Part shown: piece by piece, positions 44,639 through 63,224 of the stretch
How the letters are laid out: the number at the start of each line of letters is the position of its first letter
Numbering within the stretch: position 1 is the stretch's first letter
Assembly: GCA_964468125.1 (NCBI GenBank)
Contig: CAYXVF010000004.1
Location: forward strand, 26,605 to 90,604
Direction of reading: 5' to 3'
Length of the DNA: 64,000 nt
Source of the DNA: an uncultured Bdellovibrionales bacterium
GTDB lineage: Bacteria > Myxococcota > XYA12-FULL-58-9 > CAYXVF01
The notes under the pieces: generated by a model
Told to the model about the DNA's origin: nothing
What the model saw: only the letters and a program-made list of their open reading frames with translations
The model's database searches: none
Made by a program: the position numbers and the translations under genes

Positions 44639-44684
44639 CCAGCGTCGCCTTTTCATTTCGAACCGATGCCGCTTCACCGACGGC

Positions 44685-44930
44685 GTGAAAGAGGCTGGTT
44701 GGTGCGTGGTTCCGGAGCACTTTGGCAAGGGCTACGCCACCGAAGCAATGACGCGCGCCCATCAGTGGCTCGAAGACGAAATCGGCGCCGAGCGCACCGT
44801 GTGTATCATCGAGCCTGACAACACGCCGTCCATGGCCCTGGCGAATCGGTTGGGCTATCGGCGCTTTGGTGGGTTCGAGATCAAAGGGACCGCAGTCGGC
44901 CTTTTCGACCGTCATATCCCCAGCAACTGA
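44685..44930 (+). pseudogene. Truncated GNAT N-acetyltransferase: C-terminal fragment only, from motif A onward.
   Basis: Retains HFGKGYATEAM (the Q/R-x-x-G-x-G/A region) and the C-terminal LGYRRFGG. An in-frame stop lies immediately upstream and the N-terminal two thirds are absent. Begins right after the HiPIP terminator. Confidence 0.5.
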
Positions 44931-46568: not shown

Positions 46569-46569
46569 G

Positions 46570-46905
46570 TCATACCTCCAACGATTTCACCGCGAGCTCC
46601 TGACCCGCGGTGATCGCGACCGCATAGGAGCCGCAGTCTTCGCACACGCCGAAGGGCGCATCGAGCTTCATTTCGGCGCCGCAATCCATGCAGCGCCCCT
46701 TGCCGGGAGGTTGGTGAATCTCGAGGGTCGCGCCCTCCACCACCGTCCCTTTCGCACAGACGTCAAAACAGAAACGCACGGACTCAGCCATCACGTCGGA
46801 CAAAGCCCCGATCTCGAGCACCACGCGCTTCACAGGCCGATTTCCGGCATTTTCCGCGCAAATCGCGACGATACTCTTGGTGATCCCGAGCTCGTGCATC
46901 AACAA
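46570..46905 (-). CDS. hypA: Hydrogenase nickel metallochaperone HypA.
   Basis: MHELGIT N-terminus and zinc finger CMDCGAE...CEDCGS. 111 aa. Confidence 0.85.
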   Translation of the reverse strand: MLMHELGITKSIVAICAENAGNRPVKRVVLEIGALSDVMAESVRFCFDVCAKGTVVEGATLEIHQPPGKGRCMDCGAEMKLDAPFGVCEDCGSYAVAITAGQELAVKSLEV

Positions 46906-47924
46906 ATCCTAGGCAGTTGCTCGCCGACGAGGGTATCGACCACGCGGTCGCCGCCAAAACCCGTTTTCATGATCACTCGCCCGGCACGGCCCTCCACGGC
47001 GCGGGCGACAACGCAGGCATCCTCGCCCGCCGGGTGCGACCGCATCGCAGAGAGTACGGCGTCGACGCGGTCCGCGGGCACGACCGCCGCCACCTTGCCC
47101 TCGTTTGCCAGATAGAGTGGATCCAAGCCTAAGAGCTCGCAGGTTCCCCGAACCTCGTCGCGCACGGGGATCGCCCGTTCGTCGAGTTCGATTTGCACAC
47201 CCGAGGCGCTCGAAATCTCGTTTAACACGGTCGCGAGTCCGCCGCGCGTCACATCCCGCATGGCGCGAACGTCCGGACACACCTCGAAGACCGCTTCGAT
47301 CAAGCCGTTCAGGGGCTGACAGTCACTTTCAACGCTGCTTTCGAGCTGGAGCTCGCCCCGCGCCACGAGGATCGCCGCGCCGTGGTCGCCGAGGTAGCCG
47401 TTTAGGACGACCGCGTCCCCGGGTCGGACCTTGTGCGCGGCAGGATCACGTCCCTCGGGAATGACCCCGATCCCCGCGGTGTTGATGAAGATCTGATCGC
47501 CGCTGCCGTGCTCGACCACCTTCGTATCGCCGGTGACGACGTACACTCCGGCGTCCCGCGCCGCCTGCGCCATGCTCGAAATCACGCGCTCGAGCACTTC
47601 GAGCTCGAGGCCCTCTTCGAGGATCAACCCGCAGGTCAGGTAGAGCGGCGTCGCACCGGAAACGGCGAGGTCATTGACCGTTCCGTTGACCGCAAGCGCC
47701 CCGATATCCGAGCCCGGAAAGAACAAGGGCGACACCACGAAGGAGTCGGTCGTCAACGCGAGGCGATCGCCTCGGGCCGTCAGCTCATCCAAACGCAGAC
47801 GCGCTTGGTCCTCGAGCGTGCGCAGCATCGGATTGTCGAAATGCTCGACCATGATTTTGGCGATGAGGTCGCGCATCGCGCGCCCGCCGCCACCGTGGGC
47901 TTGGGTGATCACCTTGGGGCGCAT
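46899..47924 (-). CDS. hypE: Hydrogenase maturation protein HypE.
   Basis: ITQAHGGGG N-terminal motif and AIR-synthase-like fold. Start at MRPKV overlaps the hypD stop; the track ORF begins at an upstream M. Confidence 0.85.
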   Translation of the reverse strand: MRPKVITQAHGGGGRAMRDLIAKIMVEHFDNPMLRTLEDQARLRLDELTARGDRLALTTDSFVVSPLFFPGSDIGALAVNGTVNDLAVSGATPLYLTCGLILEEGLELEVLERVISSMAQAARDAGVYVVTGDTKVVEHGSGDQIFINTAGIGVIPEGRDPAAHKVRPGDAVVLNGYLGDHGAAILVARGELQLESSVESDCQPLNGLIEAVFEVCPDVRAMRDVTRGGLATVLNEISSASGVQIELDERAIPVRDEVRGTCELLGLDPLYLANEGKVAAVVPADRVDAVLSAMRSHPAGEDACVVARAVEGRAGRVIMKTGFGGDRVVDTLVGEQLPRIC

Positions 47925-49045
47925 CAACTCGCCTCCGCGGCGGTCTGACGACCGTAGTTGTAATAGGCTGCACAGGCCCCTTCGCTCGAGACCATGCAGG
48001 AGCCGATCGGTGTCTCCGGCGTACAGAGCGTCCCGAACACCTTGCACTGATGGGGCTTGATGACTCCCTTGAGCACTTCGCCGCACTGACACGCCTTCGG
48101 GTCCGCGATGCGCAGGCTCGGCGTGGTGAACTTCAGCTCCGCGTCGAAATGCGCGTAGGCCTTGCGCAGCTTCAGGCCAGAATGATCGATAGAGCCCAGG
48201 CCTCGCCACTCGAAGAATTCGCGGAGCTCGAACACCTCATGAATTGCGTTCAGCGCCTGTGCATTGCCGTCGTCCCGCACCACCCGATTGTACTGGTTTT
48301 CGATTTCGCAGCGCCCCTCGAGGAGCTGGTCCAGAAGCATCGCGATCGACTGGAGAACATCCAGTGGCTCGAAGCCGGCGATCACGAGCGGTTTTCGGTA
48401 GTGCTCGGAGATGAATTGATAGGGGCGCCCTCCGATCACCATGCTGACGTGTCCGGGGCCAATGAATCCGTCGAGATTCAGCTCCGGCGAGTCGAGGATC
48501 GCTTTGATGGTTGGAATGATCGTGATGTGGTTTGAGAAGACCGAGAAGTTGCGAATCCCCTTCTTTACCGCCTGCAGAATCGTGAGCGCGCTCGAAGGAA
48601 TCGTGGTCTCAAAGCCGAGGCCAAAAAACACCACTTCCCGATCCGGATTCTTCTCCGCGATCGCCAGCGCGTCCAGCGGCGAGTAGACCGTGCGCACGTC
48701 GGCGCCGGAGGCCTTTGCTTGCTGAAGGCTCATCTTCGATCCTGGAACGCGCAGGGCGTCCCCGTAGGTGGCGAAGATCACCCCGGGGGTCGTCGCGATC
48801 GCGACCGCATCGTCGACTCGCCCGACGGGCAGCACGCACACCGGGCATCCCGGTCCATGAACGAGCTCGATCGCGTAGGGGAGCATGTTCTCGAGGCCAT
48901 AGCGGAAGATCGAATGGGTGTGGCCGCCGCAGACCTCCATGATCTTCAAGGTATCTTTCGGAGCGAGGGCCCGCACCTGCTCCCCGATTCGGCCGATCAG
49001 GCGTCGGGCGGCCTCCGGGTCGCGAAATTCGTCGATGTACTTCAT
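47924..49045 (-). CDS. hypD: Hydrogenase maturation protein HypD.
   Basis: MKYIDEFRD N-terminus. Motifs CGGHTHSI, GPGCPVCV and the C-terminal CPVC. Confidence 0.9.
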   Translation of the reverse strand: MKYIDEFRDPEAARRLIGRIGEQVRALAPKDTLKIMEVCGGHTHSIFRYGLENMLPYAIELVHGPGCPVCVLPVGRVDDAVAIATTPGVIFATYGDALRVPGSKMSLQQAKASGADVRTVYSPLDALAIAEKNPDREVVFFGLGFETTIPSSALTILQAVKKGIRNFSVFSNHITIIPTIKAILDSPELNLDGFIGPGHVSMVIGGRPYQFISEHYRKPLVIAGFEPLDVLQSIAMLLDQLLEGRCEIENQYNRVVRDDGNAQALNAIHEVFELREFFEWRGLGSIDHSGLKLRKAYAHFDAELKFTTPSLRIADPKACQCGEVLKGVIKPHQCKVFGTLCTPETPIGSCMVSSEGACAAYYNYGRQTAAEAS

Positions 49046-49728
49046 GGCGACACCTCCTCTGCCCCGGCCGAGCCGCGGCTGTCGGCGAGCAGCGTATGAA
49101 CCAGATCCCAGAGCACGTGGTACGCGGCGACATGTGATTCCTGAATGCGATGTACACTCGTCGTTGGAACCACCAAGCACACGTCAACTAAACCGCTGCG
49201 GGCCATCTGTCCGCCGTCGCCTCCGGTGAGTCCAACGGTCGAAAGCCCCATCTTTTTGGCCTGCTGGTAGGCGGCCATGAGATTTCCCGAGTTGCCACTC
49301 GTAGACACACCGATCAGCACGTCCTTCTCGGAAGCCAAGGCGATCAGCTGACGCACGAAGATGTGGTCAAATCCCACGTCGTTGCCGACGGCGGTCAGCA
49401 TCGCGAGATCCGCTCCGAGGTGGGTCGCCGGGAGCGCCGCGCGTCCGACGGTGATCGGGTGCAAGAACTCGACGGCGATGTGCGCCGCATCGCAGCTCGA
49501 CCCGCCGTTCCCCATCGAAAACAAGCGCCCGCCACGGGCGTAGGCGTCCGCGACCAAGCGAGCAGCAGCGACGAGACCGCTCGCGTTATCCGCGAAGAAG
49601 CGATTCTTCACCTCGACGCTCTCACCCGCCTTCTGATGCACAGAGGTGAGCAGTGCATCATCGAGCGCCGCTGAATCGGACTTCTTGCCGCTCAGGAAGG
49701 GGTAGAGGCTATCGAGGGGATCACTCAT
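49042..49728 (-). CDS. SIS-domain protein (GmhA-like phosphoheptose isomerase fold) embedded in the hyp operon.
   Basis: SIS motifs FSMGNGGSSCDAAHIAVEF and LIGVSTSGNSGN. Confidence 0.65.
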   Translation of the reverse strand: MSDPLDSLYPFLSGKKSDSAALDDALLTSVHQKAGESVEVKNRFFADNASGLVAAARLVADAYARGGRLFSMGNGGSSCDAAHIAVEFLHPITVGRAALPATHLGADLAMLTAVGNDVGFDHIFVRQLIALASEKDVLIGVSTSGNSGNLMAAYQQAKKMGLSTVGLTGGDGGQMARSGLVDVCLVVPTTSVHRIQESHVAAYHVLWDLVHTLLADSRGSAGAEEVSP

Positions 49729-50027
49729 GCGGATTTGTCTCTCCCGACGGACGCATCCCCTTCACGCATGGCATTGAGCTCCGCCTGTGCTTCGCCCATC
49801 TGTCGCAGGACTTTCAGTGTTTCCTGCGCTTCCTCTTCGTCGATGAGACTCATCGCAAAGCCAACGTGTACGAGTACCCAAGAGCCCACGAGGCCCGCGA
49901 GCGTGCCGTCCTCTGGCGTCACGAAGGAAAGGTTTACCTCGCGCCGAACACCGCCGACGCTGACGATCCCCGTGCCTTCCTCGTCACTGGCGACTTCGAT
50001 GATCTGTCCGGGAATTCCTAGGCACAT
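49725..50027 (-). CDS. hypC: Hydrogenase assembly chaperone HypC.
   Basis: MCLGIPGQIIEV N-terminus (essential Cys2). 100 aa. Confidence 0.85.
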   Translation of the reverse strand: MCLGIPGQIIEVASDEEGTGIVSVGGVRREVNLSFVTPEDGTLAGLVGSWVLVHVGFAMSLIDEEEAQETLKVLRQMGEAQAELNAMREGDASVGRDKSA

Positions 50028-52457
50028 CTACATACTCCTCTCGCGCCTCTTGCGCGCGATGGCCGCTTGGCCCACGGCAAGCCCCCCGTCGCCAGGAGGC
50101 ACACGCCGATGGGTGAGAACCTCGAGGCCACACGCCTCGAGCCTTCGAGAGAGCTCCGTTGTGAGGAGGGCATTGGCGAAGCATCCGCCACTGAGTGCGA
50201 CAGTAGCCAGGCCAGTTGCGCGCGCAGCTCGTTCCGCGAGTCCCGCGAACCCTTCCGCCAGCCCCAGGTGGAACCGGCGAGCGATGTCCGCGACCGGAAC
50301 GCCCTCCCCCACATCCTTTAAGAGCGCTCGCCACATCGGCGTTGGATCCAAGATTACCGGACTCTCATATGCAATGGCGATTGGGTAAGCGCTCGTATCC
50401 CGGGACTGTTGCGCGAGTCCCTCCAAGGCCATCGCAGCCTGCGCCTCGTGGTCGATCCGCTCGCGATGGAGGTCGAGTGTTGCGGCCACCGCGTCAAAAA
50501 GCCGTCCCGCACTGGAAGAGCGGGGCGTGTCGGCGGCGGCGAGCATGGAGTCGAGAGTCACCCTTGGTCGTTCCAATAGATCGGCAACGGGCGGGAGCTC
50601 ACGGTAGGCTTCGAGGAGCTCCCAGCCAAGGCCTTCAACCAGTTGGGCGTATGCGTTTCGCCAAGGTTCACGCGCCGCGCGGTCTCCGCCGAGCAAGGCC
50701 CGGGGTGCGAGGGACGCGACGCGCGAATAGGACTCGAGATCGGCGACTAGAAGCTCCCCACCCCACGCCGTACCATCCTCCCCCCAGCCGACCCCGTCGA
50801 GAACGATTCCGACGACTTCCTCCTCACGGCCATGGTCAGCCAAACACGCCGCAACGTGTGCGTGATGATGCTGTACGTCGACCGCGGGCACCTCGAGGCG
50901 GCTTGCGAGCTCTAGTCCGAGGCGACGTGAGACGTAGCCAGGATGTGCATCCACGGCGACGAAGTCCGGCCGGACGTCGAAGAGTCGAAGATAGAGGTCG
51001 ACGGTGCGCTCCCACTCGTCGCGCGTGGACGGCTCGTCGAGATCGCCGAGATGCTGGGAGAGAACGAGGTCATTGCGACGTGCGAGCGCGAGGGCCGCCT
51101 TGAGATCCCCTCCCATCGCGATCCCCGTATGGTTTCGATGTCGCGCAGGAACGCTCTGGGGCGCGTATCCTCGGGCGTGCCGCAGCACCGTCGCACCCTT
51201 GCCAGTGACTCGCACCACCGAATCGTCGACGCGCTGGGCGATCTCCCGATCATGGTGGAGAAAATAGTCCGCGACCTCTCGAAGCCGCACTCTAGCATCG
51301 TCGACGGTGATGCATTGAGGCTCGGCACTCCGGTTCCCGCTGGTCATCACGACCGGTACGTCCATGCGTTTCATCATCAGGGCGTGAAGCGGCGTATAGG
51401 GGAGCATGAAGCCCAACAGGTCGGTTCCTGGTGCGATCCCATCAGCGAGAGCAAGAGGCGACCTTTCTCCTGGATTCTCCCCGGGTGCATTCGACCCGAA
51501 GGGTGCAAATGCCTTCCGGTGCTCGCGAGCCCGCAGCAAGACGATCGGCGCCGACGGAGAGGTGAGCTCTCGCCACTCGATGTCAGTGACGTCCGCGTAT
51601 CGTTCGAGCACCTCACGATCACGGGCCATCAGAGCGAGAGGTTTGCTTTCTCGGAGCTTACGCTCCCGCAAGCGAGCGACCGCTGCTTCGTTCGTGGCGT
51701 CGCAGGCGAGGTGGTAGCCGCCCAGTCCACGAATCGCGACGATCTCGCCGTGTTTGAGCAGCGTGGTTACCGCATCGAGATCGTCGAGACCGGACGTGTC
51801 GAGCGAGCGACCATCGGAACGTTCGAGCCACACTCGAGGACCACAGGTGTGGCAGGCGATCGGCTGGGCGTGGTAACGCCGGTCCGCTTCGTTGTCGTAT
51901 TCGGCTTCGCACGCCGGGCACATCTCAAACGCGCGCATGGTCGTTTGGGGGCGGTCGTAGGGAATCCCTTCGATGATCGAAAAACGTGGACCGCAATGGG
52001 TGCAATTGGTGAAAGGGTAGCGATAACGCCGCGCAGCGGGGCTGTAGGTTTCTTCACGACAGGCTGAGCACATCGCGGCGTCGGGGATCACGCCAGTCTG
52101 GGTCGCCCCTCGGCCGCTCTGAACGATCTCGAACCCCTCGAGCCCACGGGCATCCACTGGCTGCACATCGATTTCGTCGACCCGAGCGAGAGGCGGGAGT
52201 CGATTCATGAGCTCGGCGACGAAGCCATCGGCGCCCGGACCCTCGATGTGGAACAACACGCCGTCGCCATCGTTGCGAACCTGTCCGCGCAGTCCGAGCG
52301 CGCGGGCGAGCCGTGCCACCGTCGGCCGAAAGCCGACGCCTTGGACCAAGCCCCGTACTCGCACGCTGAAGGCCTGGGGCGTCGACGAACCGTGCGGAAG
52401 CACACTCACGCATGGAGCTTGCCAGGGGCGTGCCCGGGTGGAGTTGATCCAAGTCAA
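50028..52457 (-). CDS. hypF: Carbamoyltransferase HypF.
   Basis: Acylphosphatase domain VRGLVQGVGFRP, two Zn-finger CxxC pairs, YrdC and Kae1-like domains. 809 aa. Confidence 0.9.
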   Translation of the reverse strand: MTWINSTRARPWQAPCVSVLPHGSSTPQAFSVRVRGLVQGVGFRPTVARLARALGLRGQVRNDGDGVLFHIEGPGADGFVAELMNRLPPLARVDEIDVQPVDARGLEGFEIVQSGRGATQTGVIPDAAMCSACREETYSPAARRYRYPFTNCTHCGPRFSIIEGIPYDRPQTTMRAFEMCPACEAEYDNEADRRYHAQPIACHTCGPRVWLERSDGRSLDTSGLDDLDAVTTLLKHGEIVAIRGLGGYHLACDATNEAAVARLRERKLRESKPLALMARDREVLERYADVTDIEWRELTSPSAPIVLLRAREHRKAFAPFGSNAPGENPGERSPLALADGIAPGTDLLGFMLPYTPLHALMMKRMDVPVVMTSGNRSAEPQCITVDDARVRLREVADYFLHHDREIAQRVDDSVVRVTGKGATVLRHARGYAPQSVPARHRNHTGIAMGGDLKAALALARRNDLVLSQHLGDLDEPSTRDEWERTVDLYLRLFDVRPDFVAVDAHPGYVSRRLGLELASRLEVPAVDVQHHHAHVAACLADHGREEEVVGIVLDGVGWGEDGTAWGGELLVADLESYSRVASLAPRALLGGDRAAREPWRNAYAQLVEGLGWELLEAYRELPPVADLLERPRVTLDSMLAAADTPRSSSAGRLFDAVAATLDLHRERIDHEAQAAMALEGLAQQSRDTSAYPIAIAYESPVILDPTPMWRALLKDVGEGVPVADIARRFHLGLAEGFAGLAERAARATGLATVALSGGCFANALLTTELSRRLEACGLEVLTHRRVPPGDGGLAVGQAAIARKRRERSM

Positions 52458-52587: not shown

Positions 52588-53763
52588 TCAGCCCTCTTCG
52601 GCCCGCTCAGGGGCAGCCTCTTTGGGAGCACCGCCCTCTTCACCTTCGCCCGCTCCCTCCATCGGCTCGCCTTCTTCGGCCTCCTCCTTCGGCGGCGGGA
52701 CATATTCTTCATACTTCGCGAGCATCGGGTACTCGTCGATCATGGGCTTGCCCAAGACCGGCTTGTAGGCCCCCTGGTGACAGGTCTCGCAGTTGATCTT
52801 CGGCACGTCGCCCAGCTCACCCAGACGGTACTCTGGATAGTACTGCTCGAGCGCATAGTCGCCCTGACCGACCAGGTACTCCTGGTTCAGGTTGCGAACC
52901 ATGCGAATGCCGTACCACGCCTTCGTGCGGGTGATGGGACTCTGTCCCCACTCCGCCATCGCCCGGCTGTTGTGACAGTAGGTGCAGTTGACACCCAGCG
53001 CATTCGACATGTGCATCATCAGACCATAAGTGGCCTCGGTCTGTTTGATGGTCCGCGTGTTGGTCGTCGGCAGAGCGGTCGGACCCACCACGCGAATGTT
53101 CATGTCGTTGTAGAGATAGTCGGAGAACGAGGTGCTCGGAAGCGAGGTCAAGCCCTGCTCCGGGTGCGCCTTGTTGACAGACGAGAAGCCGCCGACCATC
53201 CGCGTCATGTTCGGGTCTGGTGTTTCCTCAAACCAGATGTACTCCGGAACGTTCTTGCCGCGGTGGCAGGTCCAGCAGTTGACCCCGGTCTCACCGACAT
53301 GGGTCTTCCAGTTCTCATTGATGTGCTGGGTCATTTGGATCATGCGCCGCGAGACGTGCTTGGTGTAGTACTCGTCCGAGGACATCTTCTCGGGGTTGTG
53401 ACAATAGTTGCAGCCCTGCGGATACCCCTCGGGATGCTGATTGTCGCCACCCACTGGCGCCACCCAATTGGTCAGGTTGTTCATCAGTCCCGTGAATGAC
53501 CCGGTGCTGAGCGCTCCCAAAACCTTGACGTTCTCGTAGGCTTCGCCCGCTTTCGCGCCCGCGTCTCCCCAAGGGATCCGCATCGGATAGTTGGCGTTCT
53601 TTTCTTCGAGCTCATCGAGCGCAGACTGGCTGGTGACGTGCTCCATACCGACGCCGTCCGGGCCACGTTGCACGGAGCGTGCGTCCATGGCGACGCCGAA
53701 GGACCAGATCCCCAGACCCAGCGCGCCGAGGCCCGCGAGGACTTGAAACGATAAGAATCTCAT
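52588..53763 (-). CDS. pufC: Photosynthetic reaction-centre tetrahaem cytochrome c subunit.
   Basis: Four CXXCH sites: CNYCHN, CWTCHR, CTYCHN, CETCHQ. Start overlaps the pufM stop (ATGA), as is typical. Confidence 0.85.
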
Positions 53764-54455
53764 TTCAGCACTCCCATCCCGTCAGGGGTTGCGACCGTCG
53801 CCAGGTCGGGCATCACCTGGTCGTTGAAGGTGTAGTCGGGGGCGATCCCGTGCTTCACCGCCCAGAGGTACCAGTTGTCGACCACGGTCCCTGTAAGAAG
53901 GATGCCGATTCCCCCCGTAAGGGTGCACAACACTACAAACCACCATGCCCAGCGGTGGATGGATTCAAACGTAGCGTTGAAGCCCATGCACCAGCGCCAG
54001 AACAAACCGGCACGCTAAGCGGCAGTTCCCTGATCGACGATCTGGCCGATCTCACGTTCGCCAGCGAAATGCCCCACGGCCAAGACGGTCGCCCCGTGCA
54101 TGGCGAAGAGCAGGGTCGAGCCGTAGAGGAACACGATCGAGAGCGCGTGGAACGGGTTGTAGAACAGATTGCCGTAGCGCAGTGAGAACGCCGCGGTCCA
54201 ATCGAGGTGCGGGAAGATCCCAAAGGGTACCGCCTCACCCCAGTTGCCCATGAGGATCGGTCGCGACGAAGCCAAACAGCAGCGACGCGATCCCCCAGTA
54301 CCCTAGATAGATCGGGCCGAACTGCGCACTTCCCAGCCGACCCGCGAGGTGCAGGAAGCCCTTCTTGCGCGTCCCCACGATTCAGGAATCGCGATGTCCT
54401 CGTGGACCGGCCCCCGCACCTGAAACTGAGTGAATAGGTTCTGAGACTCAGGCAT
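53760..54455 (-). pseudogene. pufM: Reaction-centre M subunit gene, disrupted by an internal deletion of about 120 codons, at least two frameshifts and an in-frame amber codon.
   Basis: Recognisable PufM segments lie in three different frames: MPESQNLFTQFQVRGP (ATG at 54455 with an AAGGGGAG RBS), [46 protein letters not shown]...[31 protein letters not shown]...GTAA, then TAG at 54017-54015 where PufM has Glu, then [25 protein letters not shown]...[20 protein letters not shown]. Only 696 nt are present, against about 975 expected. Confidence 0.7.
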
Positions 54456-54471
54456 TGCGTGCTCCCCTTAG

Positions 54472-54507
54472 CACGCGATACCTACATTCAAAGCTGAGCA
54501 AGGCCAG
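54472..54507 (-). pseudogene. pufL: Reaction-centre L subunit gene remnant: 12 N-terminal codons only.
   Basis: Minus-strand GGAGA-N6-CTG GCC TTG CTC AGC TTT GAA TGT AGG TAT CGC GTG encodes (L)ALLSFECRYRV, the conserved PufL N-terminus. CTG stands where ATG is expected. The frame then runs into the pufM RBS and start. About 800 nt of pufL are absent. Confidence 0.55.
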
Positions 54508-54602
54508 TTAGCGTCTCCAATTCGCGAGCTCGAAAGGGACCAAAGACGGGCGAAGCATGCGCGCGCGTCGCCCCGCCCGTCCTGGCTTGAGTCCCAACCC
54601 GG

Positions 54603-54785
54603 CTACGGTGAGCCAGGCATGGCTTGCGACGTTTGCCCCACCGAAGGGGTGCCGGCCGCGTCGAGCCAGTTGAACCGCTCAGTGCTGAGCAGCACAAAGT
54701 GAATGACAATCGCGAGTACGAAATTGAACGCCCAAAGAGCGACCAAATACGGACGCGGATCGAAAATCTTCCAGAATCTCCACAT
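54603..54785 (-). CDS. pufA: Light-harvesting 1 alpha polypeptide.
   Basis: [41 protein letters not shown], with the BChl-ligating His in the TM helix. 12-nt gap to pufB. Confidence 0.85.
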
Positions 54786-54797
54786 AGTCGATCCCCC

Positions 54798-55016
54798 TTA
54801 CACGAACATGTTGAACGTCGACTGTGCGACGGTTTGTGCATCTTGAATCATGGAGTAGCCGTCTAGTCCTGCCAACCAGGGTCTCCACATCCAAGTGAGG
54901 ATATGAGCAATGATCGCAATCACAACGAACGTCACGAACGCCATGATGAAACCACTGTGGAATTCTTTGGCCTCTTCATCAGTAAGACCTGACAGGGCCC
55001 TTGTTGGTTCTGCCAT
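54798..55016 (-). CDS. pufB: Light-harvesting 1 beta polypeptide, with an unusual C-terminal extension of about 24 residues.
   Basis: SGLTDEEAKEFHSGF...IAHILTWMWRPWL core. The ORF then continues AGLDGYSMIQDAQTVAQSTFNMFV before the stop. Confidence 0.8.
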   Translation of the reverse strand: MAEPTRALSGLTDEEAKEFHSGFIMAFVTFVVIAIIAHILTWMWRPWLAGLDGYSMIQDAQTVAQSTFNMFV

Positions 55017-55095
55017 CTAGTTTTCCCTTTCAGCTAGCCTTGGTACTTCTAACTATCCTCGACTCACGTCGATGAGAAACTCTTCGATTCTCTCC

Positions 55096-55371
55096 CTAAG
55101 CCCGGAAAACACTCCCGAGCGCGGTCTGAACCTCAACATGTGCTTCCCTAAACACTGATTGTCGAACTGGCTTGGCATTCCCGATGAATCCGCGGGTCCA
55201 GCTCCTAGGAAGGAGCCGCTGGACCACCACGTAGGGGAATACGAACGTCATCGCGATCACGTAGTAGAGCGATGACTCCACGATGTCGCCGAGCTTCCGG
55301 CGCGGAACGTGGAACAACGGGGCCTCTAGAGTGGCCCGACGCCGACTGACTGGGAGCGTGACTGCTTTCAT
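55096..55371 (-). CDS. pufQ: PufQ-like small membrane protein (position and architecture only).
   Basis: 91-aa ORF between bchY/Z and pufB. Single TM segment LYYVIAMTFVFPYVVV and a ...SVFRA C-terminus reminiscent of PufQ. Start overlaps the upstream stop (ATGA). Confidence 0.4.
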   Translation of the reverse strand: MKAVTLPVSRRRATLEAPLFHVPRRKLGDIVESSLYYVIAMTFVFPYVVVQRLLPRSWTRGFIGNAKPVRQSVFREAHVEVQTALGSVFRA

Positions 55372-57368
55372 GTGAGGCCTCCTCCTGCTTGGGCCACTGC
55401 GGACCCGTTCATTCGCTTCTTGGATTTACGCGCGGCCACTCGGGCCACGGTGACGCGACTGTCACCCTGGAGCTTCGCGTCGTGCTCAATCGTGTCGCGC
55501 AACGTCTTCGCCGCGGAGATGCGCGTGAGGACCGGCACCTCGCTCACCATCTCGTCGAGGAGCGCTTCGCAGAGCGCGCGACCATACTCGCGGTACATCA
55601 CGACGTTTACGTCGGCGTCCACGAGACGAGGCACCTGCGCGAGATGCGAACCCAGGGCGAAGACCATGTTGATCTCCGCCCCGATGCCTTCGACAAGGCG
55701 ACGGATCTCGGCGAGGTCACTCGGCATGTTGAAGTTGGAACCGGTCACCACCACGCTCGGCAGTGATGGGTCCAAAGCTTCGTGTGCGCGACGCATCGCG
55801 CCTTCGGTCCCCTTCTTCCCGAGCTCTTCCTCGGACGCGACGCCGGCCTTTTCGCCTGGCGCGTTCTTGGCGAGGCGAGCGCGTTTCGCTTTTTTACGGT
55901 CTGCCAATTGCTTCTTGCGAAACTTCTCGTCGTCTTTTGGAACGTCTTCCCAGATCCCCGAGGCATGCCCCGTGCCGACGCCGGAGAAGAAATCGTTCAT
56001 CGCGTCAAAGCGCGGCTTGCTCGCCATCGCTGCGTTCACGACCTGCGCGAGGGAGCCAGCCCCCGCGGGCCCCATCAGCGGGCGCGCGGAAATGAGGTTG
56101 GTGAAGTAGAGCGCGGGGGTGGCGCTTTCCTTCGCGGCCTGTACCACCGGCGTGGTTCCCACAACCAAATCCGGCTCGAATTCCTTCATCGCAGCGAGGT
56201 CCTGCTCGAGCGATGCACGGTACTGCACCTGCACGCCACGGGCCTTCAGCCACTCACTGTCGGCAGAAGACCACTCGGTCTTTGCACAGGCCGTCCCGAC
56301 GTAACGCACGTCCGCACCGCTCTCGATCAACAGGCGAGCAACGAGCAGCTCAGAGCCTTCGTAGCCGGACAACGTGATCCGCCCTTTGATGGGCATCCCA
56401 GCGAGCGCACCCTGGATCGCGGGCAGGATCGCGTTCTGCGCGGCGGCTATTTTCTCCGCGGAAACCCCCGCCTGCTGCCCCACGGCCTTCAGCCATTCGG
56501 CGGTGCCGTCGTGGCCCACCGGAGCAGAACCCACGATCGGCCGACCGGCAGCCGCAAACTCACGGAAGGTAGCGACATAGAACGGGTGGATCGCAGCCGC
56601 GACGGTGCAATCGAGCGCGGCATATTGCTCACGCCATTCGCGCGTGGGCACCACGGGCCCGGCGGCGAGCTCCATCGGGGCGAGCATGCGTCCGATGGTG
56701 ATGGGATCGACCGGGAACATTTCACCGACCAGCGCGACCGTCGGCAGCTTCGCATGTCCCTCGCGCGGCGCTTGGACGGGCCCAGCCTCCGCCTCTCTTC
56801 GAGCGTAGGCGAGCATGGCGCCGGCGAGCACGTCCTTGGCTTCCGCATGGGTCGGCACACCAAAGCCCGGGACGTCGATCCCGACGATTCGCACGCCATT
56901 GATCGTCTTCGGAAGCAGGCGCAGCGGCACCCCCGATGCGGTGGGAACACAGAGGTTGGTCACCACGAGCGCGTCGTACTTCTCGGGGTCCGCGAGGTCG
57001 TGAACCGCGTCGCGAATGTCTTCGAAGAGCTTGCCGGTAACCAGAGTCTCCGAATCAAACGGCACGTAGCCGACGGTGCGCCGAGCGCCATAGAAGTGCG
57101 ACGTGAAGGTGAGGCCGTAGACACAGCAGGCCGAGCCCGAAAGGACCGTCGCCGTACGACGCATGCGCAATCCGACGCGCAGGGAGCCAAAGGCGGGGCA
57201 CATGCTCTGCGGCTGGTCGTGGGGGCCAACAGGATAGTCCGCGGCGTAGCGATCGAGCACATCGCTCTTGCCCGCTGCGGCGGCGGCTTCACGCAGCTTC
57301 TCTCGCCCACCATGGCAGCCACTTTCTGTGGCGTTCTTTGCCTCGACGCTCGTCACTTTCGTTCTCAC
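55368..57368 (-). CDS. bchY: Chlorophyllide a reductase subunit Y, fused in frame to a short remnant of subunit Z.
   Basis: N-terminus GCHGG...PQSMCPAFGSLRVGLRMRR...SGSACCVYGLTF matches BchY. The last ~130 aa carry BchZ-like blocks GTEGAMRRAHEALDPSLPSVVVTGS and NFNMPSDLAEIRRLVEGIGAEINMV. There is no separate bchZ: only about 2.0 kb is available for bchY plus bchZ, where about 3.0 kb is expected. Confidence 0.7.
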   Translation of the reverse strand: MRTKVTSVEAKNATESGCHGGREKLREAAAAAGKSDVLDRYAADYPVGPHDQPQSMCPAFGSLRVGLRMRRTATVLSGSACCVYGLTFTSHFYGARRTVGYVPFDSETLVTGKLFEDIRDAVHDLADPEKYDALVVTNLCVPTASGVPLRLLPKTINGVRIVGIDVPGFGVPTHAEAKDVLAGAMLAYARREAEAGPVQAPREGHAKLPTVALVGEMFPVDPITIGRMLAPMELAAGPVVPTREWREQYAALDCTVAAAIHPFYVATFREFAAAGRPIVGSAPVGHDGTAEWLKAVGQQAGVSAEKIAAAQNAILPAIQGALAGMPIKGRITLSGYEGSELLVARLLIESGADVRYVGTACAKTEWSSADSEWLKARGVQVQYRASLEQDLAAMKEFEPDLVVGTTPVVQAAKESATPALYFTNLISARPLMGPAGAGSLAQVVNAAMASKPRFDAMNDFFSGVGTGHASGIWEDVPKDDEKFRKKQLADRKKAKRARLAKNAPGEKAGVASEEELGKKGTEGAMRRAHEALDPSLPSVVVTGSNFNMPSDLAEIRRLVEGIGAEINMVFALGSHLAQVPRLVDADVNVVMYREYGRALCEALLDEMVSEVPVLTRISAAKTLRDTIEHDAKLQGDSRVTVARVAARKSKKRMNGSAVAQAGGGLT

Positions 57369-58399
57369 ACCTCGTCGTAGATGATTTCGAGTGAAGGCTT
57401 CTTGACCGCCTTCGCACCGCAGAGGTCCACGCTCGTTGCCGGCTCGAGTACGACATCGCGTCCCGTCGCGTCCGCGGCGAAGAGATCGAGAAGCTGGTCC
57501 TGGGTCAGCGGATTCGGATAGAGCGGCGGGCTCTCGGCGACGTTGACGCCGAGTGCCTCAAAGAGCGGGCCCCATCGACTGTCCGGTCGCCCGATGATCT
57601 CGTACATGCCGCTCTTGCGGCGAATGTCTTCGTCCGCAGGGATCGAAGCGAGGACCGGAATCCCGACAGTCTCCGCGAAAGCCTGCGCTTCGCCCGTGCC
57701 GTCGTCTTTGTTGACCACGATTCCGGCGACGCCAACATGGCCGCCGAGCCTTCGGAAGTAGTCCGCGGCAGAGCAGACGTTGTTGGCGACGTAGAGCGAT
57801 TGTAGGTCGTTCGAGGCGACGACGATCACCTTCTGGCACATGTCGCGGGCGATCGGCAGACCGAAGCCGCCACAGACGACATCGCCGAGAAAGTCGAGAA
57901 GCACGTAGTCGAAGTCCCAATCGTTGAAACCGAGCTTCTCGAGCGTTTCGAAGCCGTGAATGATGCCGCGTCCGCCGCAGCCACGGCCAACCTCCGGGCC
58001 GCCTAGCTCCATGGCGAAAACGCCGTCGCGCTTGAAGCAGACGTCGCCGATCTCGACCGCTTCGCCCGCGGCTTTCTTCTTGGCGGTCGTCTCGATGATC
58101 GTGGGGCACGCCTTACCCCCGAAGAGCAGGGAGGTCGTGTCGCTCTTGGGATCGCAACCGATCAGCAAGACCTTCTTGCCTTGCTGCGCCATCATGTACG
58201 ACAGGTTTGCGAGGGTGAAGCTCTTGCCGATCCCTCCCTTGCCGTAGATCGCGATGATCTGCGTTTCCTTCGTGGGTGCAGTGGTCACCGGCGGCGAGGG
58301 ATCCTGCGCTGCTTCGGCCTTCAGGTTGTCATCGATCTCTTTGATCGAAGTCGCGCCCTCGGCGCTCACCGGTCCAACGTTCATCCGTGTTCCCTCCAA
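57365..58399 (-). CDS. bchX: Chlorophyllide a reductase iron-protein subunit X.
   Basis: NifH-like P-loop IAIYGKGGIGKSFTLANLS and Cys ligands. 344 aa. Confidence 0.9.
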   Translation of the reverse strand: MEGTRMNVGPVSAEGATSIKEIDDNLKAEAAQDPSPPVTTAPTKETQIIAIYGKGGIGKSFTLANLSYMMAQQGKKVLLIGCDPKSDTTSLLFGGKACPTIIETTAKKKAAGEAVEIGDVCFKRDGVFAMELGGPEVGRGCGGRGIIHGFETLEKLGFNDWDFDYVLLDFLGDVVCGGFGLPIARDMCQKVIVVASNDLQSLYVANNVCSAADYFRRLGGHVGVAGIVVNKDDGTGEAQAFAETVGIPVLASIPADEDIRRKSGMYEIIGRPDSRWGPLFEALGVNVAESPPLYPNPLTQDQLLDLFAADATGRDVVLEPATSVDLCGAKAVKKPSLEIIYDEV

Positions 58400-59307
58400 T
58401 CCAACAGCATCTTGAGACAGCTCGGGTCCGTGAACGCGGCGCGATAGGCCTCGTTCGCGTCGTCTGCGGCTCGACGATGGGTGATCAGCTCATCCAGGCT
58501 CAGTGCGCCTTCCGCCACGAGGTCGTTGACCCGCACCAGGTCCTGCGGCTGCCATTCAGCAGCGATGCGGAAACGTGCCTCTTTCATGAAGGCGGGCGGA
58601 AAGGCGAAGTTGACGCGCTCGCTGTAGAAGCCGGCGAGAACGATCTCGCCCCCGCGCACGAGCGCGCGCACCAACGTATCGAAGATTGCGGAGTCGCCAC
58701 TGACGTCGACGATCACCCGATAGGTCGCTCGAGCGTCTTCATCCGGGTGTACGACGCGGTACCCCTGGGCACCGTTCGCTCGAATGGAATTGGTTTCCCA
58801 GACGGTGGGAGCGCCACCACGGGCCACCGCGAGGCGCGCGAGCAGTCGTCCCAGCACACCGTGCCCAACGATCAGATCTGGGATTTCGTCGGCGAGAGCA
58901 TGCTCGGCGGTCGCCGCGAGCGCGAGCAAGACACCCTTGTCTCCGAGACTCTCAGCGATTGGGATGACGCGATCCGCAGGGACGACCAGCGTGGATGCCG
59001 CGCCACCGAATAGCCCACGAACGTCTACGAAGCCGTTGGAGCCTGGGACAAATACCGTCGTACCATCGGCGATCCGCTCGTTGCCGCGTACGACCCGCCC
59101 GACGGACTCGTAGCCAGGTACCAGCGGGTAGCCCATTCCTGGGAAAGGCGGCATTTTTCCGGACCAGAGCAGCCGTTCCGTGCCGGTGCTGATGCCACTC
59201 CAGTCTACATCGACCACCACGTCACCGTCGCCCGGGGTGGTCAACGTGACGGGACTGAGTGTCAGGTGTTCCGGCTCCTGGAGCACCACTGCTTTGGCTT
59301 CCGTCAT
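58381..59307 (-). CDS. bchC: Bacteriochlorophyllide a dehydrogenase (zinc-type ADH fold).
   Basis: MTEAKAVVLQEPEHL...VDVDWSGISTGTERLLWSGKMPPFPGMGYPLVPGYE. Start at 59307 chosen by homology; the track ORF extends upstream to 59484. Confidence 0.85.
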   Translation of the reverse strand: MTEAKAVVLQEPEHLTLSPVTLTTPGDGDVVVDVDWSGISTGTERLLWSGKMPPFPGMGYPLVPGYESVGRVVRGNERIADGTTVFVPGSNGFVDVRGLFGGAASTLVVPADRVIPIAESLGDKGVLLALAATAEHALADEIPDLIVGHGVLGRLLARLAVARGGAPTVWETNSIRANGAQGYRVVHPDEDARATYRVIVDVSGDSAIFDTLVRALVRGGEIVLAGFYSERVNFAFPPAFMKEARFRIAAEWQPQDLVRVNDLVAEGALSLDELITHRRAADDANEAYRAAFTDPSCLKMLLDWREHG

Positions 59308-59322
59308 GGGTGTAAAGTGCAC

Positions 59323-59342
59323 TTGACACTCGCGAGTGTCAA
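59323..59342. promoter_or_regulatory. Perfect 20-bp palindrome TTGACACTCGCGAGTGTCAA 16 nt upstream of the bchC start codon. Candidate PpsR-type operator or -35 overlap.
   Basis: Self-complementary sequence sharing the TGTCAA/TTGACA half-site with the sites at 35316 and 60767. Confidence 0.45.
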
Positions 59343-59510
59343 TATGCGTAGCCGCTTTTCTTAAGCCAATTTTTAAGCGATTTCGGGCGAATTCGGTGAA
59401 TCGGCCGCGGATCCCGGGCGCAGGGAGCCGCCCAATTCGTTCAGATTGCGCGCGATCGCGCTCTGAGCGCCCCAGGAGCGCCACTGAGGGCTCGAAGAAT
59501 GTGATCGGAA

Positions 59511-60707
59511 TCAGATCCGCGTAGCGATCAGCAACTGTGTAAGCATCGGGCGTCGGGTCCGGATCCGACGTGCACCCACAAATCCGGCCGCACCGAGCAT
59601 GGCGCTGAGCTCTTCGGGGGAGCGTGGCCGGCCATGGCCCATCGCGAGCAGATAGAGACCGAAGTAGGCGTCACCCATGGGGAGGGCGCCGCGCGTTCGC
59701 GCCATCGGCTCGGCGAGGAGGAGAGTCCCACTTTTCGGCAGGGCCTGGTGGACGGCGCGCAGGATCTCCACCGCAGGGCCATCGTCGTGGTCGTGAATGA
59801 TGCGCACGAGGGAGACCACATCGGCGCCATTGGGGAGGGGATCGGAGAACAGATCGCCTCCCACGACCGTCGCCCGGTCATCGAATCCGTTCGCGGTCAA
59901 ACGTGCGCGTGCTCGCTCGGCGACCGCGGGGAGGTCAAAGAGCATCAGATCGAGCTCTGGGTGCGCCTGCGCCACCGCACTCAGGAACGCCCCTTCTCCG
60001 CCGCCGACGTCCATGAGTGTCCGGTGGCGACCGAGATCATAGGCTTCTAATACGTCGCCTGCAATGAATTGCTGGGACTCAGCCATCAGAGCGGAGTATT
60101 GGGCGACGCGCTCGCCGCCGAGGTCTCCAGGCGTCTCGCTGCTGGAGTAGGCCCAGAACTCGCCGAGCTCGGTGCTCGGCAGCTCGTTGCGCAGCAACGC
60201 CAAGGGATCGGTCAGGTCCCGGTAGAGCATCGGGTGGTGCTCGATCATTCGCGCGACACCCGGATTACCGCGCAAAGCCGCCCCGAGCATGCCCAAGCCG
60301 TAGGTGCGCGCACCGCGCCGCTGCAACAGACCCAACGACACCGCCGCGTCCAGGAGCCGCCTCATGTTCGCGGGCTTGATGTTCGCGCGACGAGCGAGCT
60401 CCCCAGCTTCGAGTGGCCCGTCGGCGAGCTGCTCGAAGAGGTCGAGGCGCACGCATGCGTAGAGCACCTGCGAATAAACGAACCCCGCGCACAAATCGAA
60501 GAGCTGCGTGGCCCGCCGAGTCGCGATCCAGCGAATAAACGGGAATCCGGCGGCCCAGCGCTGGAATTTCTCGCTCGCGAGTAGGCGGTTTCGAAGGGCG
60601 TGCCAGCGATCGACGAGCGCGCTCCACCCACTGCGACGTGGGACCAGCGCGCGATCGGCCGAAGTGGCCATCTCGGTGGGCTTGGCCTGATCCATGGGCG
60701 ATTTCAT
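59511..60707 (-). CDS. crtF: Carotenoid O-methyltransferase (demethylspheroidene O-methyltransferase family). Start codon uncertain.
   Basis: Class I O-MTase SAM motif LMDVGGGEGAFLSAVA and a dimerisation N-domain. Position upstream of bchC matches crtF. Confidence 0.7.
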   Translation of the reverse strand: MKSPMDQAKPTEMATSADRALVPRRSGWSALVDRWHALRNRLLASEKFQRWAAGFPFIRWIATRRATQLFDLCAGFVYSQVLYACVRLDLFEQLADGPLEAGELARRANIKPANMRRLLDAAVSLGLLQRRGARTYGLGMLGAALRGNPGVARMIEHHPMLYRDLTDPLALLRNELPSTELGEFWAYSSSETPGDLGGERVAQYSALMAESQQFIAGDVLEAYDLGRHRTLMDVGGGEGAFLSAVAQAHPELDLMLFDLPAVAERARARLTANGFDDRATVVGGDLFSDPLPNGADVVSLVRIIHDHDDGPAVEILRAVHQALPKSGTLLLAEPMARTRGALPMGDAYFGLYLLAMGHGRPRSPEELSAMLGAAGFVGARRIRTRRPMLTQLLIATRI

Positions 60708-60766
60708 AGCGCCATTCCGAGTGAGAGGTAATCCCAGTTGCCTATTCGCTTCCTGACAGGCTAAGG

Positions 60767-60784
60767 TGTCAAGGCAGATAGACA
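60767..60784. promoter_or_regulatory. PpsR/CrtJ consensus operator TGTCAAGGCAGATAGACA in the divergent crtF / crtD promoter.
   Basis: Exact TGTC-N10-GACA, 33 nt upstream of the crtD GTG start. A half-site repeat TGTCAAG lies at 60811. Confidence 0.55.
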
Positions 60785-60816
60785 CTTAGACGCCTATTTC
60801 GGATTGGACGTGTCAA

Positions 60817-62340
60817 GTGAAACGGAAACGCGTGGCTGTTGTAGGTGCCGGGATGGGTGGGTTGGCCGCCGCCATCGACCTCTCTCGAGCAGGCCATGCG
60901 GTCACCGTACTCGAACGGCGCTCAGCACCGGGCGGAAAGATGCGCGAGGTGCAGGTCGGGGACGCGGCGGTGGATTCTGGCCCAACGGTTCTCACGATGC
61001 GCTGGGCCTTCGAAAACCTGTTTCGCGATGCGGGCGCGGCGCTCGGTGAGCGCGTGACCTTGCGCAAGGCGGACATTCTCGCGCGGCACGCCTGGAGCGA
61101 GACCGAGCGACTCGATCTCTTCAGCGACGACGAAAAGAGCGCCCACGCGATCCGAGAGTTCGCCGGTTCCGATGCTGCACAGGGCTACCTCGCGTTCCGA
61201 AAGCGCGCCCGGGAGATCTACGAAACCCTCGAACACACCTTCATTCGAGCTTCGCAACCGTCGCAGCTCGGCTTGGTACGGCGCTCCGGGGGTTTGGTCA
61301 GCCTGCTGAAGATCAACCCGTTCGAGAGCATGTGGAAGGAGCTCTCCCGCCACTTCGCCGATCCGCGTTTGCGCCAGCTCTTCGGTCGCTACGCGACTTA
61401 TTGCGGCTCGAATCCCTTCGAGGCACCCGCGACCCTGATGCTCGTCGCGCACGTCGAGCTCGATGGCGTGTGGATCATCGAGGGAGGCATGCAACGGCTC
61501 GCCGAAGCGATGGCGAAGCTCGCGGCCGAGCTCGGAGCGGAGATTCGCTATGACAGCGCGGTGGAAGAGCTCGAGCGCGAAGGAGGCAAGGTTCGCGCGC
61601 TCCGCCTTGAGAATGGGGAGCGCATCGAATGCGACGCGGCGGTCGTCAACGCGGCACCGTCGGCCCTAGCGCGCGGATTCCTCGGCGACTCCGTACGCGG
61701 TGCAACGCGCCCTCTCGCGCGCTCAATGCGGTCGCTCTCGGCGATCACCTGGACCCTTCATGCGAAAACCCGAGGCTTTCCGCTTGAGCGCCACAACGTG
61801 TTTTTCAGCCGCGATTACGAACGCGAATTCCGCGAAATCCTCCAGGAGCACCGATTTCCCTCCGAGCCCACGGTTTACGTGTGCTGCCAGGATCGAGGTC
61901 ATGGCTCGGTTCCGGATGGCGCGGAGCGATTGTTCATGATCATCAATGCCCCGCCAGTGGGTGACCAACACTCATTTTCCGAAGCGGAGATCGAAGCATG
62001 CAAGACGCAGACGTTCTCAGTCCTGGAGAGGTGCGGCCTGACGATCGAACCGGGACCGACGGTGGTCACGACACCCAACGACTTCGAGGCGATGTTTCCC
62101 GGGACCGGCGGGTCGATCTACGGGATGGCGACGCACGGCTCGCGCGCGTCGTTCAAACGCCCGAGCTCTCGAAGCAAGATCCCGGGGCTCTACTTCGCGG
62201 GCGGGGCGACACACCCGGGAGCGGGTGTGCCGAATTCGACCGTATCCGGCCGGCTCGCCGCGGCCGCGGTGCTGGAAGACTTCGATTCGACGTCCTGGTG
62301 GGCTCCCGCGGATATTCGTGGTGGTACGTCGACGCTCTGA
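60817..62340 (+). CDS. crtD: Carotenoid desaturase of the phytoene-desaturase family (CrtD-like hydroxyneurosporene desaturase).
   Basis: FAD dinucleotide-binding motif VAVVGAGMGGLAAAIDLSRAGHAVTVLE. 507 aa. Adjacent to crtC. Confidence 0.75.
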   Translation: MKRKRVAVVGAGMGGLAAAIDLSRAGHAVTVLERRSAPGGKMREVQVGDAAVDSGPTVLTMRWAFENLFRDAGAALGERVTLRKADILARHAWSETERLDLFSDDEKSAHAIREFAGSDAAQGYLAFRKRAREIYETLEHTFIRASQPSQLGLVRRSGGLVSLLKINPFESMWKELSRHFADPRLRQLFGRYATYCGSNPFEAPATLMLVAHVELDGVWIIEGGMQRLAEAMAKLAAELGAEIRYDSAVEELEREGGKVRALRLENGERIECDAAVVNAAPSALARGFLGDSVRGATRPLARSMRSLSAITWTLHAKTRGFPLERHNVFFSRDYEREFREILQEHRFPSEPTVYVCCQDRGHGSVPDGAERLFMIINAPPVGDQHSFSEAEIEACKTQTFSVLERCGLTIEPGPTVVTTPNDFEAMFPGTGGSIYGMATHGSRASFKRPSSRSKIPGLYFAGGATHPGAGVPNSTVSGRLAAAAVLEDFDSTSWWAPADIRGGTSTL

Positions 62341-63224
62341 GCGATGACGGACAACATGGACTGACCATAATTGGCTTCATCGGGAGCGTATTCTCACCCT
62401 ACTACGCCTGGACCGATTGGCGAGCTCCGGAGAATCACTGCGCGATCAACGTAGCCCTCTACGGCCCGCAAAGCCGCTGGGCCATGACCGAGCGCGGTGC
62501 AGCGAGCCTCGAGCGCGATAGAGACGAGCTTCGCGTGGGACCGAGCCACATGCGTTGGGAAGACGACGGCTTGACGATCGCGTTCGATGAGATCGGTTGT
62601 CCGCTGCTACGCCGGGTCAAAGGACGCGTGCGGGTGGAACCCGAGTGCGTAAACGAAGTTGGATTCGCGATCACCAATCGGCACTCCTGGTGGCCCATCG
62701 CGCCGAGTGCACGCGTCCGGGTCGAGCTCGACCAACCTTCGATGGCATGGTCCGGACACGGCTATCTCGACTCGAATTGGGGTACGGAGCCGCTGCAAGA
62801 GGGCTTTGTCGATTGGAACTGGTCGCGCACCGGCGACGACGACGGCACCTTCATCACCTACGACTGTCAGTGTCGTGACGGCGCAGAGCGTACGACCGCC
62901 CTCGCTTTTGCACGAGACGGTTCCCTCTCGAGCTTCGAGGCGCCCCCCATGCGGCCATTGAGTCGCACCTTTTGGCGTGTGCCGCGCCAGGGCCGCGGCG
63001 AGCAGGCACGGGTGGTGCAGAATTTGGAGGATACGCCGTTCTACACCCGGTCCATTCTCGAAACGGAGCTGATGGGGCGACCGGTGAGAGGCGTACACGA
63101 GAGCCTATCGCTCGATCGCTTCGCGAGTACCATCGTCCGGCTGATGCTGCCCTTCCGCATGCCCCGGAATACGTTCGCCGCTCGCGCTCTCACCGGCCGC
63201 ACGGGCGGCTCGCTCACGCGCTAG
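62298..63224 (+). CDS. crtC: Hydroxyneurosporene synthase (carotenoid 1,2-hydratase).
   Basis: Conserved WWYVDALSDDGQHGLTIIGFIGSVFSPYYAW block. The proposed GTG start lies inside the crtD 3' end, giving an overlap of about 40 nt. Confidence 0.65.
   Translation: MGSRGYSWWYVDALSDDGQHGLTIIGFIGSVFSPYYAWTDWRAPENHCAINVALYGPQSRWAMTERGAASLERDRDELRVGPSHMRWEDDGLTIAFDEIGCPLLRRVKGRVRVEPECVNEVGFAITNRHSWWPIAPSARVRVELDQPSMAWSGHGYLDSNWGTEPLQEGFVDWNWSRTGDDDGTFITYDCQCRDGAERTTALAFARDGSLSSFEAPPMRPLSRTFWRVPRQGRGEQARVVQNLEDTPFYTRSILETELMGRPVRGVHESLSLDRFASTIVRLMLPFRMPRNTFAARALTGRTGGSLTR

Follow-up and report, generated by a model that had tools for sequence, protein, structure and literature searches.

In Rhodobacter capsulatus the promoter of bchC carries two footprinted palindromes bound by CrtJ, at -4 to -21 and -30 to -47, which span the -10 and -35 regions, and chromatin immunoprecipitation sequencing places further peaks at bchC, bchF, crtED and crtAI (PMC5362033). 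The corresponding regulator of Rubrivivax gelatinosus, PpsR, which was studied by way of a single Cys436Ala mutant, binds degenerate sites (TGT-N12-ACG, cGT-N12-ACA and TGa-N12-ACA) with N8 or N9 spacing (PMC4452267). Outside the proteobacteria, the photosynthesis gene cluster (PGC) that Gemmatimonas phototrophica received by inter-phylum transfer has only one PpsR site and minimal regulation (PMC11406998). Clusters in Myxococcota, for which repeated and independent losses of phototrophy have been inferred, were described by Li et al. 2023, where PpsR and its sites go unmentioned (PMC10576062). Here we analyse a stretch of 64,000 nucleotides from an uncultured bacterium assigned to the Myxococcota (GCA_964468125.1, contig CAYXVF010000004.1, positions 26,605 to 90,604; hereafter the window) that holds part of such a cluster, together with its own ppsR and recurring TGTCAA/TTGACA palindromes in three promoter spacers.

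Our conclusion, to which we give a probability of roughly 85%, is that these motifs are operators of the PpsR/CrtJ regulator encoded in the same window, inherited with a PGC of purple-bacterial type that now resides in a myxobacterial genome. The sequences themselves show the motif, its statistics and conservation, and an intact regulator; from their comparison we infer that PpsR binds and represses at these sites, and where exactly the promoter elements lie; the system is the known PpsR/CrtJ system, and the locus gives no new insight into how PpsR works.

An earlier note on this DNA, made from the letters alone, had listed three strings, TTGACACTCGCGAGTGTCAA (59323-59342), TGTCAAGGCAGATAGACA (60767-60784) and TGTCAAGTACAATTGACG (35316-35333), and all three are present at those positions. 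A search for TGTCAA-N6-TTGACA with up to one mismatch returned three matches in the 64 kb, starting at 35316, 59311 and 60767, where 0.02 are expected; none of 100 shuffled sequences reached three, and an independent simulation agrees on the excess. All three lie in promoter spacers of the PGC and none in the approximately 46 kb of non-PGC DNA, so that within the window the motif is confined to the cluster. The match at 59311-59328, TGTAAAGTGCACTTGACA, overlaps the palindrome TTGACACTCGCGAGTGTCAA and is a third instance of the note's own pattern, which it had not listed. In the loci of relatives the motif was seen only at the same three spacer types. As a hexamer TGTCAA is rarer in the window than expected (7 copies for 16.7), and five of the seven copies fall within the three spacers.

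Among 80 bchC loci fetched from other genomes, 74 have a tandem TGT-N12-ACA / N8 / TGT-N12-ACA upstream of the gene (two such sites exactly 8 bp apart, with 10 or more of the 12 core bases kept), and their consensus is TGTAAaTntnacTTGACA-N8-tGTCAagcTAgncTGACA. The window's bchC strand runs cggCTACGCATA TTGACA, then CTCGCGAG, TGTCAAGTGCACTTTACA, CCC and the ATG. The earlier note had called this an unusual inverted arrangement; it reads instead as the canonical tandem layout, as at R. capsulatus bchC (PMC5362033) and in the 74 of 80 loci. A position weight matrix built from the 74 tandem loci and run over both strands of the window gives its highest 44-mer score, 23.4 bits, to 59311-59354; 60741-60784 comes second with 14.3 bits, and the background has its 99.99th percentile at -10.8 bits. 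With a matrix for a single site, the site at 35316 ranks highest in the window at 23.1 bits, and 59311-59328 scores 22.6 bits.

Conservation is concentrated in the half-sites. When the window was compared with its closest relatives, L082 and L089, over all three spacers, changes were seen at none of the 48 half-site positions but at 121 of the 477 remaining intergenic ones (Fisher p = 2.5e-6). PpsR/CrtJ palindromes, often of the form TGTc-N10-gACA, come as a rule in pairs, which are either neighbours some 8 bp apart or distant and cooperative. At bchC, full tandem pairs are found in the relatives L025, L006 and L091, and the window combines a full lower site with an upper one reduced to its proximal half.

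The regulator itself is intact, as the earlier note had stated. PpsR scores 437 bits against TIGR02040 (cutoff 275), has an HTH_8 domain at residues 428-464 and matches the structure of Rhodobacter sphaeroides PpsR (PDB 4HH2, 1.4e-37). Neither its helix-turn-helix (HTH) segment, NRASAA..LGLSRQSLY.KL, nor the Cys of RLCIEAAL varies between Myxococcota and Alphaproteobacteria; with the recognition-helix region unchanged, the same DNA specificity is naturally expected. Of the redox pair (C249 and C420 in CrtJ), the HTH cysteine is present and the position of R. sphaeroides C251 is occupied by Arg. Immediately upstream of ppsR lies aerR, which has the same length and position as its AerR homologues in L082 and L084. 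To judge from these sequences, the one regulator that the note had proposed behind the common TGTCAA half-site is best explained as PpsR.

In the mechanism that we propose, the C-terminal HTH of PpsR would recognise TGT-N12-ACA, here with the extended halves TGTCAA and TTGACA. At bchC the lower operator would span the putative -10 (CACTTT) together with the start of transcription, and PpsR bound there would keep RNA polymerase out. At crtF/crtD and bchF/aerR a single palindrome lies in a divergent spacer, and its TTGACA-like halves would double as -35 boxes. The candidate -35 hexamer of bchC and of crtF is a perfect TTGACA, that of aerR TTGACG. The TTGACA in the bchC palindrome, whose resemblance to a sigma-70 -35 box had been remarked upon, is the putative -35 of the tandem layout. 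AerR with B12 would modulate PpsR, as in Rhodobacter.

Several observations weigh against this interpretation. The bare consensus TGT-N12-ACA occurs five times in the window where 5.07 are expected, which is chance level; as the extended motif is enriched, the information sits in the extended half-sites. The distal TGT of the upper bchC site is gone in the window, L089 and L090 (GCG in the latter two), and repression of bchC in R. capsulatus involves cooperative binding to both palindromes. The outer triplets of that site read CGT-N12-ACA in L091 and L006 and TGT-N12-ACA in L025; because L089 and L090 have lost the distal half as the window has, the loss characterises this sub-clade and is not decay of this genome. 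The crtF site of L090 is non-canonical (TGT-N14-ACA). A strict sigma-70 scan of 59250-60900 returned no promoter, and the inferred -10 elements, such as that of bchC, are weak, so that overlap of operator and promoter rests on geometry and homology. Finally, the cluster is partly dead, and the sites may no longer matter physiologically.

This last point is the substance of the alternative that survives best, namely that the sites are molecular fossils: former PpsR operators in a genome whose photosystem is dead, with no useful regulation left for them to exert. On the origin of the sites it is compatible with the reading given above. That structural genes are decaying, as had been noted, is borne out by the loss or breakage of bchF, bchZ, pufL and pufM. 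The bchF remnant is truncated, its ATG has become ATA and its -10 has changed from TATCTA to TTTCTA; bchNBHLM, which normally follow bchF, are absent next to the remnant, and ctaE adjoins instead. The gene bchZ survives as two fragments fused to bchY (55560-55835), pufL is absent, and between pufA and pufC pufM is reduced to two out-of-frame Photo_RC fragments (54015-54275 and 53760-54005). Against this, ppsR and aerR are still full-length together with 12 further cluster genes (bchC, bchX, bchY, crtF, crtD, crtC, bchG, bchP, lhaA, pufB at 54798-55016, pufA at 54603-54785, and pufC), no half-site position differs from the closest relatives, and a second intact set of genes is possible elsewhere in the genome, of which the window is the part seen. 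We regard fossil status as possible, although unlikely. The PpsR/AerR pair and all the operators have outlived the reaction centre, and the regulators may be kept for some other purpose. The window looks like a lineage mid-way through the loss of phototrophy, which fits the multiple independent losses inferred for the phylum.

A different reading concerns the palindrome TTGACACTCGCGAGTGTCAA, a perfect 20 bp (10+10) upstream of bchC. Its position is as the earlier note gave it; the gap to the ATG is 15 nt, where the note had 16. Such symmetry could mark an operator in its own right, be it for PpsR, with the half-sites inverted and N8 spacing as the note had proposed, or for a different dimeric regulator, and TTGACA-N8-TGTCAA, with up to one mismatch, occurs twice in the window where 0.04 are expected. 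However, any canonical tandem of the kind found in 74 of 80 loci automatically yields a TGACA-N8-TGTCA junction, and the overlapping 59311-59328 is by itself a full canonical palindrome. In relatives the hexamers and the 8-bp distance are kept and the letters of the spacer are not: CTCGCGAG is palindromic in the window only, and none of its counterparts in L089, L090 and L091 (CCCGAGAG, CTGCCGAG and GTTTCCGG) is. The perfect symmetry is therefore specific to the window and looks like chance. A separate operator is improbable; as the aligned promoters read, the palindrome is the junction of two neighbouring standard sites (right half of the upper site, or -35, then 8 bp, then left half of the lower site) and no separate element.

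Slightly less probable again is a role in RNA, with the palindrome forming a hairpin in transcripts that read through from crtF into bchC, whether as terminator, attenuator or occluder of the bchC start. A stem of 8 bp with a 4-nt loop is predicted (-17.4 kcal/mol, z = -1.96), and the hairpin potential persists in relatives, which follows from the hexamers being inverted. There is no T-run, a terminator scan was negative, 9 of 200 shuffled sequences fold equally well, and the DNA half-sites fully account for the stem. Chance matching in intergenic DNA that is richer in AT, which the count of the generic consensus would allow, is negligibly probable as the source of the motifs given the excess of the extended motif, the retention of site positions across Myxococcota and Alphaproteobacteria, and half-sites that are invariant where their surroundings have diverged.

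Features of the PpsR-associated loci in the window, with the bchC upstream regions of five relatives for comparison (bchC strand, 5' to 3').
Feature	Position	Strand	Description
bchF remnant (pseudogene)	35093-35283	minus	ATG changed to ATA; stop after ~62 codons; compared with intact bchF in L082, L084, L085 and L086
Operator A	35316-35333		TGTCAAGTACAATTGACG; TGT-N12-ACG; between bchF remnant and aerR
Overlapping site B	35332-35349		CGTCTGGACTTCTTTACA; CGT-N12-ACA; 2 nt common with operator A; putative PpsR binding
aerR/ppaA-like B12-binding co-regulator	35497-36329	plus	intact, 277 aa; Pfam PF02310
ppsR	36334-37746	plus	intact, 470 aa; PAS domains and C-terminal Fis-type HTH
Decayed part of cluster	53760-55835	minus	bchZ fragments fused to bchY; pufB and pufA intact; pufL absent; pufM in two fragments
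bchC	58381-59307	minus	intact; TIGR01202 430 bits; N-terminus homologous in 5 relatives; ATG at 59307
Lower bchC operator	59311-59328	minus	TGTCAAGTGCACTTTACA on bchC strand (forward TGTAAAGTGCACTTGACA); exact TGT-N12-ACA; ends 3 nt 5' of ATG
Spacer between upper and lower bchC sites	59329-59336	minus	CTCGCGAG; 8 bp, canonical length
Degenerate upper bchC site	59337-59354	minus	CGGCTACGCATATTGACA; only proximal half TTGACA (59337-59342) survives, putative -35
crtF (O-methyltransferase)	59511-60707	minus	intact; Pfam Methyltransf_2 and Dimerisation
Extra half-site CTGACA	60753-60758		8 bp from crtF/crtD operator; TGGCGG in L089; weakly supported
crtF/crtD operator	60767-60784		TGTCAAGGCAGATAGACA; crtF strand TGTCTATCTGCCTTGACA, ends in TTGACA, putative -35
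Extra half-site TGTCAA	60811-60816		abuts crtD GTG start; kept in L089
crtD	60817-62340	plus	intact; GTG start; followed by crtC (61998-63224); NF045637 680 bits and NF045922 298 bits
bchC upstream, L089			upper TTGACA; spacer CCCGAGAG; lower TGTCAAGTGCACTTTACA (identical to window); CTC ATG
bchC upstream, L090			upper TTGACA; spacer CTGCCGAG; lower TGTCAATTTTACTTTACA; TCGACT ATG
bchC upstream, L091			upper CGTTTACGTTGCTTGACA; spacer GTTTCCGG; lower TGTCAATTTTACTTTACA; GTCATT ATG
bchC upstream, L025			upper TGTCAATTCAGATTGACA; spacer CAAATAAC; lower AGTACATGTAGATTGACA; CCA ATG
bchC upstream, L006			upper CGTCAAATTAAGTTGACA; spacer GTATTTTA; lower TGTACAAATTAATTGACG; GC ATG

The site at 35316 had been placed upstream of the aerR/ppsR operon, and its position stands; more precisely, it occupies the divergent spacer between bchF and aerR, as in every relative. 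Its left half, on the minus strand, is a TTGACA facing bchF and its right half a TTGACG facing aerR, both putative -35 hexamers. The centres of operator A and the overlapping site B are 16 bp apart (the usual distance is 26) and the two share a palindromic GACGTC; spacings of 16 and 26 bp both lie near half-integral helical turns. An alignment of this spacer from five genomes (PpsR identity 53-100%) has 38 invariant columns, 21 of which fall in the 34-bp block 35316-35349 (G-TGTCAA-G, T.GACGT and CTTTACA), with the centre of operator A varying. The same overlapping pair, TGTCAACTCAACTAGACG / CGTTCATATTACTTTACA, is present in the alphaproteobacterium Algihabitans (L092); its occurrence there and in Myxococcota (the window, L082, L084, L085 and L086) indicates that the arrangement is old and arrived with the cluster.

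Downstream of this pair, the 5' leader of aerR (35350-35496) is far better conserved relative to L082 than other intergenic DNA, and relatives at 66-70% PpsR identity still have its blocks GCGCTTAGGAA, CTTGAGG and CGTGATTG. As a candidate riboswitch or structured RNA the leader was rejected: it had no Rfam match, and RNAalifold gave -3.7 kcal/mol with a covariation penalty.

The genes crtF and crtD diverge from a spacer of 109 bp, and the operator between them matches TGT-N12-ACA exactly, as had been reported for this promoter region. In L089 the corresponding site is TGTCTACATGCCTTGACA; set against TGTCTATCTGCCTTGACA in the window, the halves are the same and the centre is different. In L025, where crtE separates crtD from crtF, a tandem pair occupies the equivalent crtD/crtE spacer. 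The extra half-site at 60753 makes CTGACA-N8-TGTCAA (60753-60772) a second TGACA-N8-TGTCA junction. At the other end of the spacer, 60811-60819 (TGTCAAGTG) is a 9-mer that also opens the lower bchC site, and an indel of 8 nt between the window and L089 shifts the distance of the 60811 half-site from the main operator. No convincing -10 was found for crtD or crtF; GATTGG as the -10 of crtD is ruled out by the same indel.

Two other candidate sites were discarded. The first, 55160-55177 (TGTCGAACTGGCTTGGCA), upstream of pufB and with two mismatches, lies inside a small conserved open reading frame, is not kept in L025, L006 and L074, and is attributed to chance. The second, 30103-30120 on the minus strand (CGTAGAGATAGCGTGACA), is a weak PpsR-like site that precedes ctaC (cytochrome oxidase subunit II) by approximately 300 nt and has a poor right half-site; its 14.4 bits are within chance for 128,000 positions. 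In R. capsulatus CrtJ binds the promoters of respiratory oxidases.

The distance between the lower palindrome and the start of bchC differs by lineage. In six myxobacterial loci (the window, L089, L090, L091, L025 and L006) 2-6 nt separate the palindrome from the ATG and a Shine-Dalgarno sequence is absent, whereas proteobacterial loci have 18-113 nt and a GGAG-type Shine-Dalgarno. In the window the ATG follows the -35 hexamer by 29 nt. Given that the lower palindrome of R. capsulatus ends at -4, the predicted start of the window's bchC transcript is 59307, the A of the ATG. A tentative proposal, to which we give rather less than an even chance, is that the promoter inherited from purple bacteria was remodelled in the myxobacterial PGC lineage to give a leaderless or near-leaderless bchC mRNA, and likewise for bchF in the closest relatives of the window. 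If true, the operator would abut the 5' end of the bchC message. For myxobacteria there is already a proposal of leaderless sigma-A transcripts (PMC12754779).

As to the wider setting, the closest homologues of BchC come from the Polyangia metagenome-assembled genomes (MAGs) L006 and L025 and an Archangium MAG, the best identity among species-representative genomes being ~68%. Relatives of PpsR stand at 91, 84, 70 and 66% identity, with a further Myxococcota MAG at 53%, and those of CrtF, whose homologues are annotated by their sources as demethylspheroidene O-methyltransferase, at 81, 65 and 62%. The myxobacterial domain TIGR02266 is found in a Ser/Thr kinase of the window. Following ppsR are bchG, lhaA (PUCC) and bchP, and bchX and bchY accompany bchC. 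Between bchP and pufC, at 41470-52457, lie the PilZ/TIGR02266 Ser/Thr kinase and a hyp hydrogenase-maturation operon (hypB, hypE, hypD, hypF); in L084 (7891-14080) the kinase and hyp genes are likewise 3' of bchP, from which it follows that the cluster was already split in the ancestor of the clade and that the interruption is no product of decay. A 3.8-kb Logan contig from SRR7048222 (L001) has an identical BchC, and its crtF-bchC spacer and operators are as in the window; that public sequencing sample thus contains this organism or one nearly identical to it.

Read as PpsR operators, the sites suggest that the PpsR layer, operators and regulator together, travelled with the PGC into Myxococcota and stayed under constraint there, and they supply concrete targets for the study of pigment-synthesis control in uncultured phototrophic myxobacteria. 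The closest counterpart is bchC of R. capsulatus, with which the window shares the palindrome, the 8-bp spacing, the TTGACA of the upper site as putative -35, a lower site that would lie over the -10 and start, the placement of bchC downstream of crtF, and the encoding of aerR and ppsR together in the cluster. It differs in its myxobacterial host, in an upper site of which just the proximal half is kept, and in a lower-site centre without the TA of the usual TAgncT -10; its lower site is 3 nt from the ATG, where proteobacterial loci have 18-113 nt. The sites at 35316 (..ACG) and 35332 (CGT..) have degenerate outer triplets like those at pucB and crtI of Rubrivivax gelatinosus, but here the 18-mers overlap by 2 nt and are not 8-9 bp apart. 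As in Gemmatimonas phototrophica, a purple-bacterial PGC with ppsR and ppaA has come to lie in a non-proteobacterial host; unlike Gemmatimonas, the myxobacterial lineage keeps operators at bchC, at crtF/crtD (or crtE) and at bchF/aerR. In gene content and synteny, with crtC-crtD and the divergent crt(E)F-bchCXYZ-puf, the cluster is that of the Myxococcota PGCs described by Li et al. 2023 (PMC10576062).

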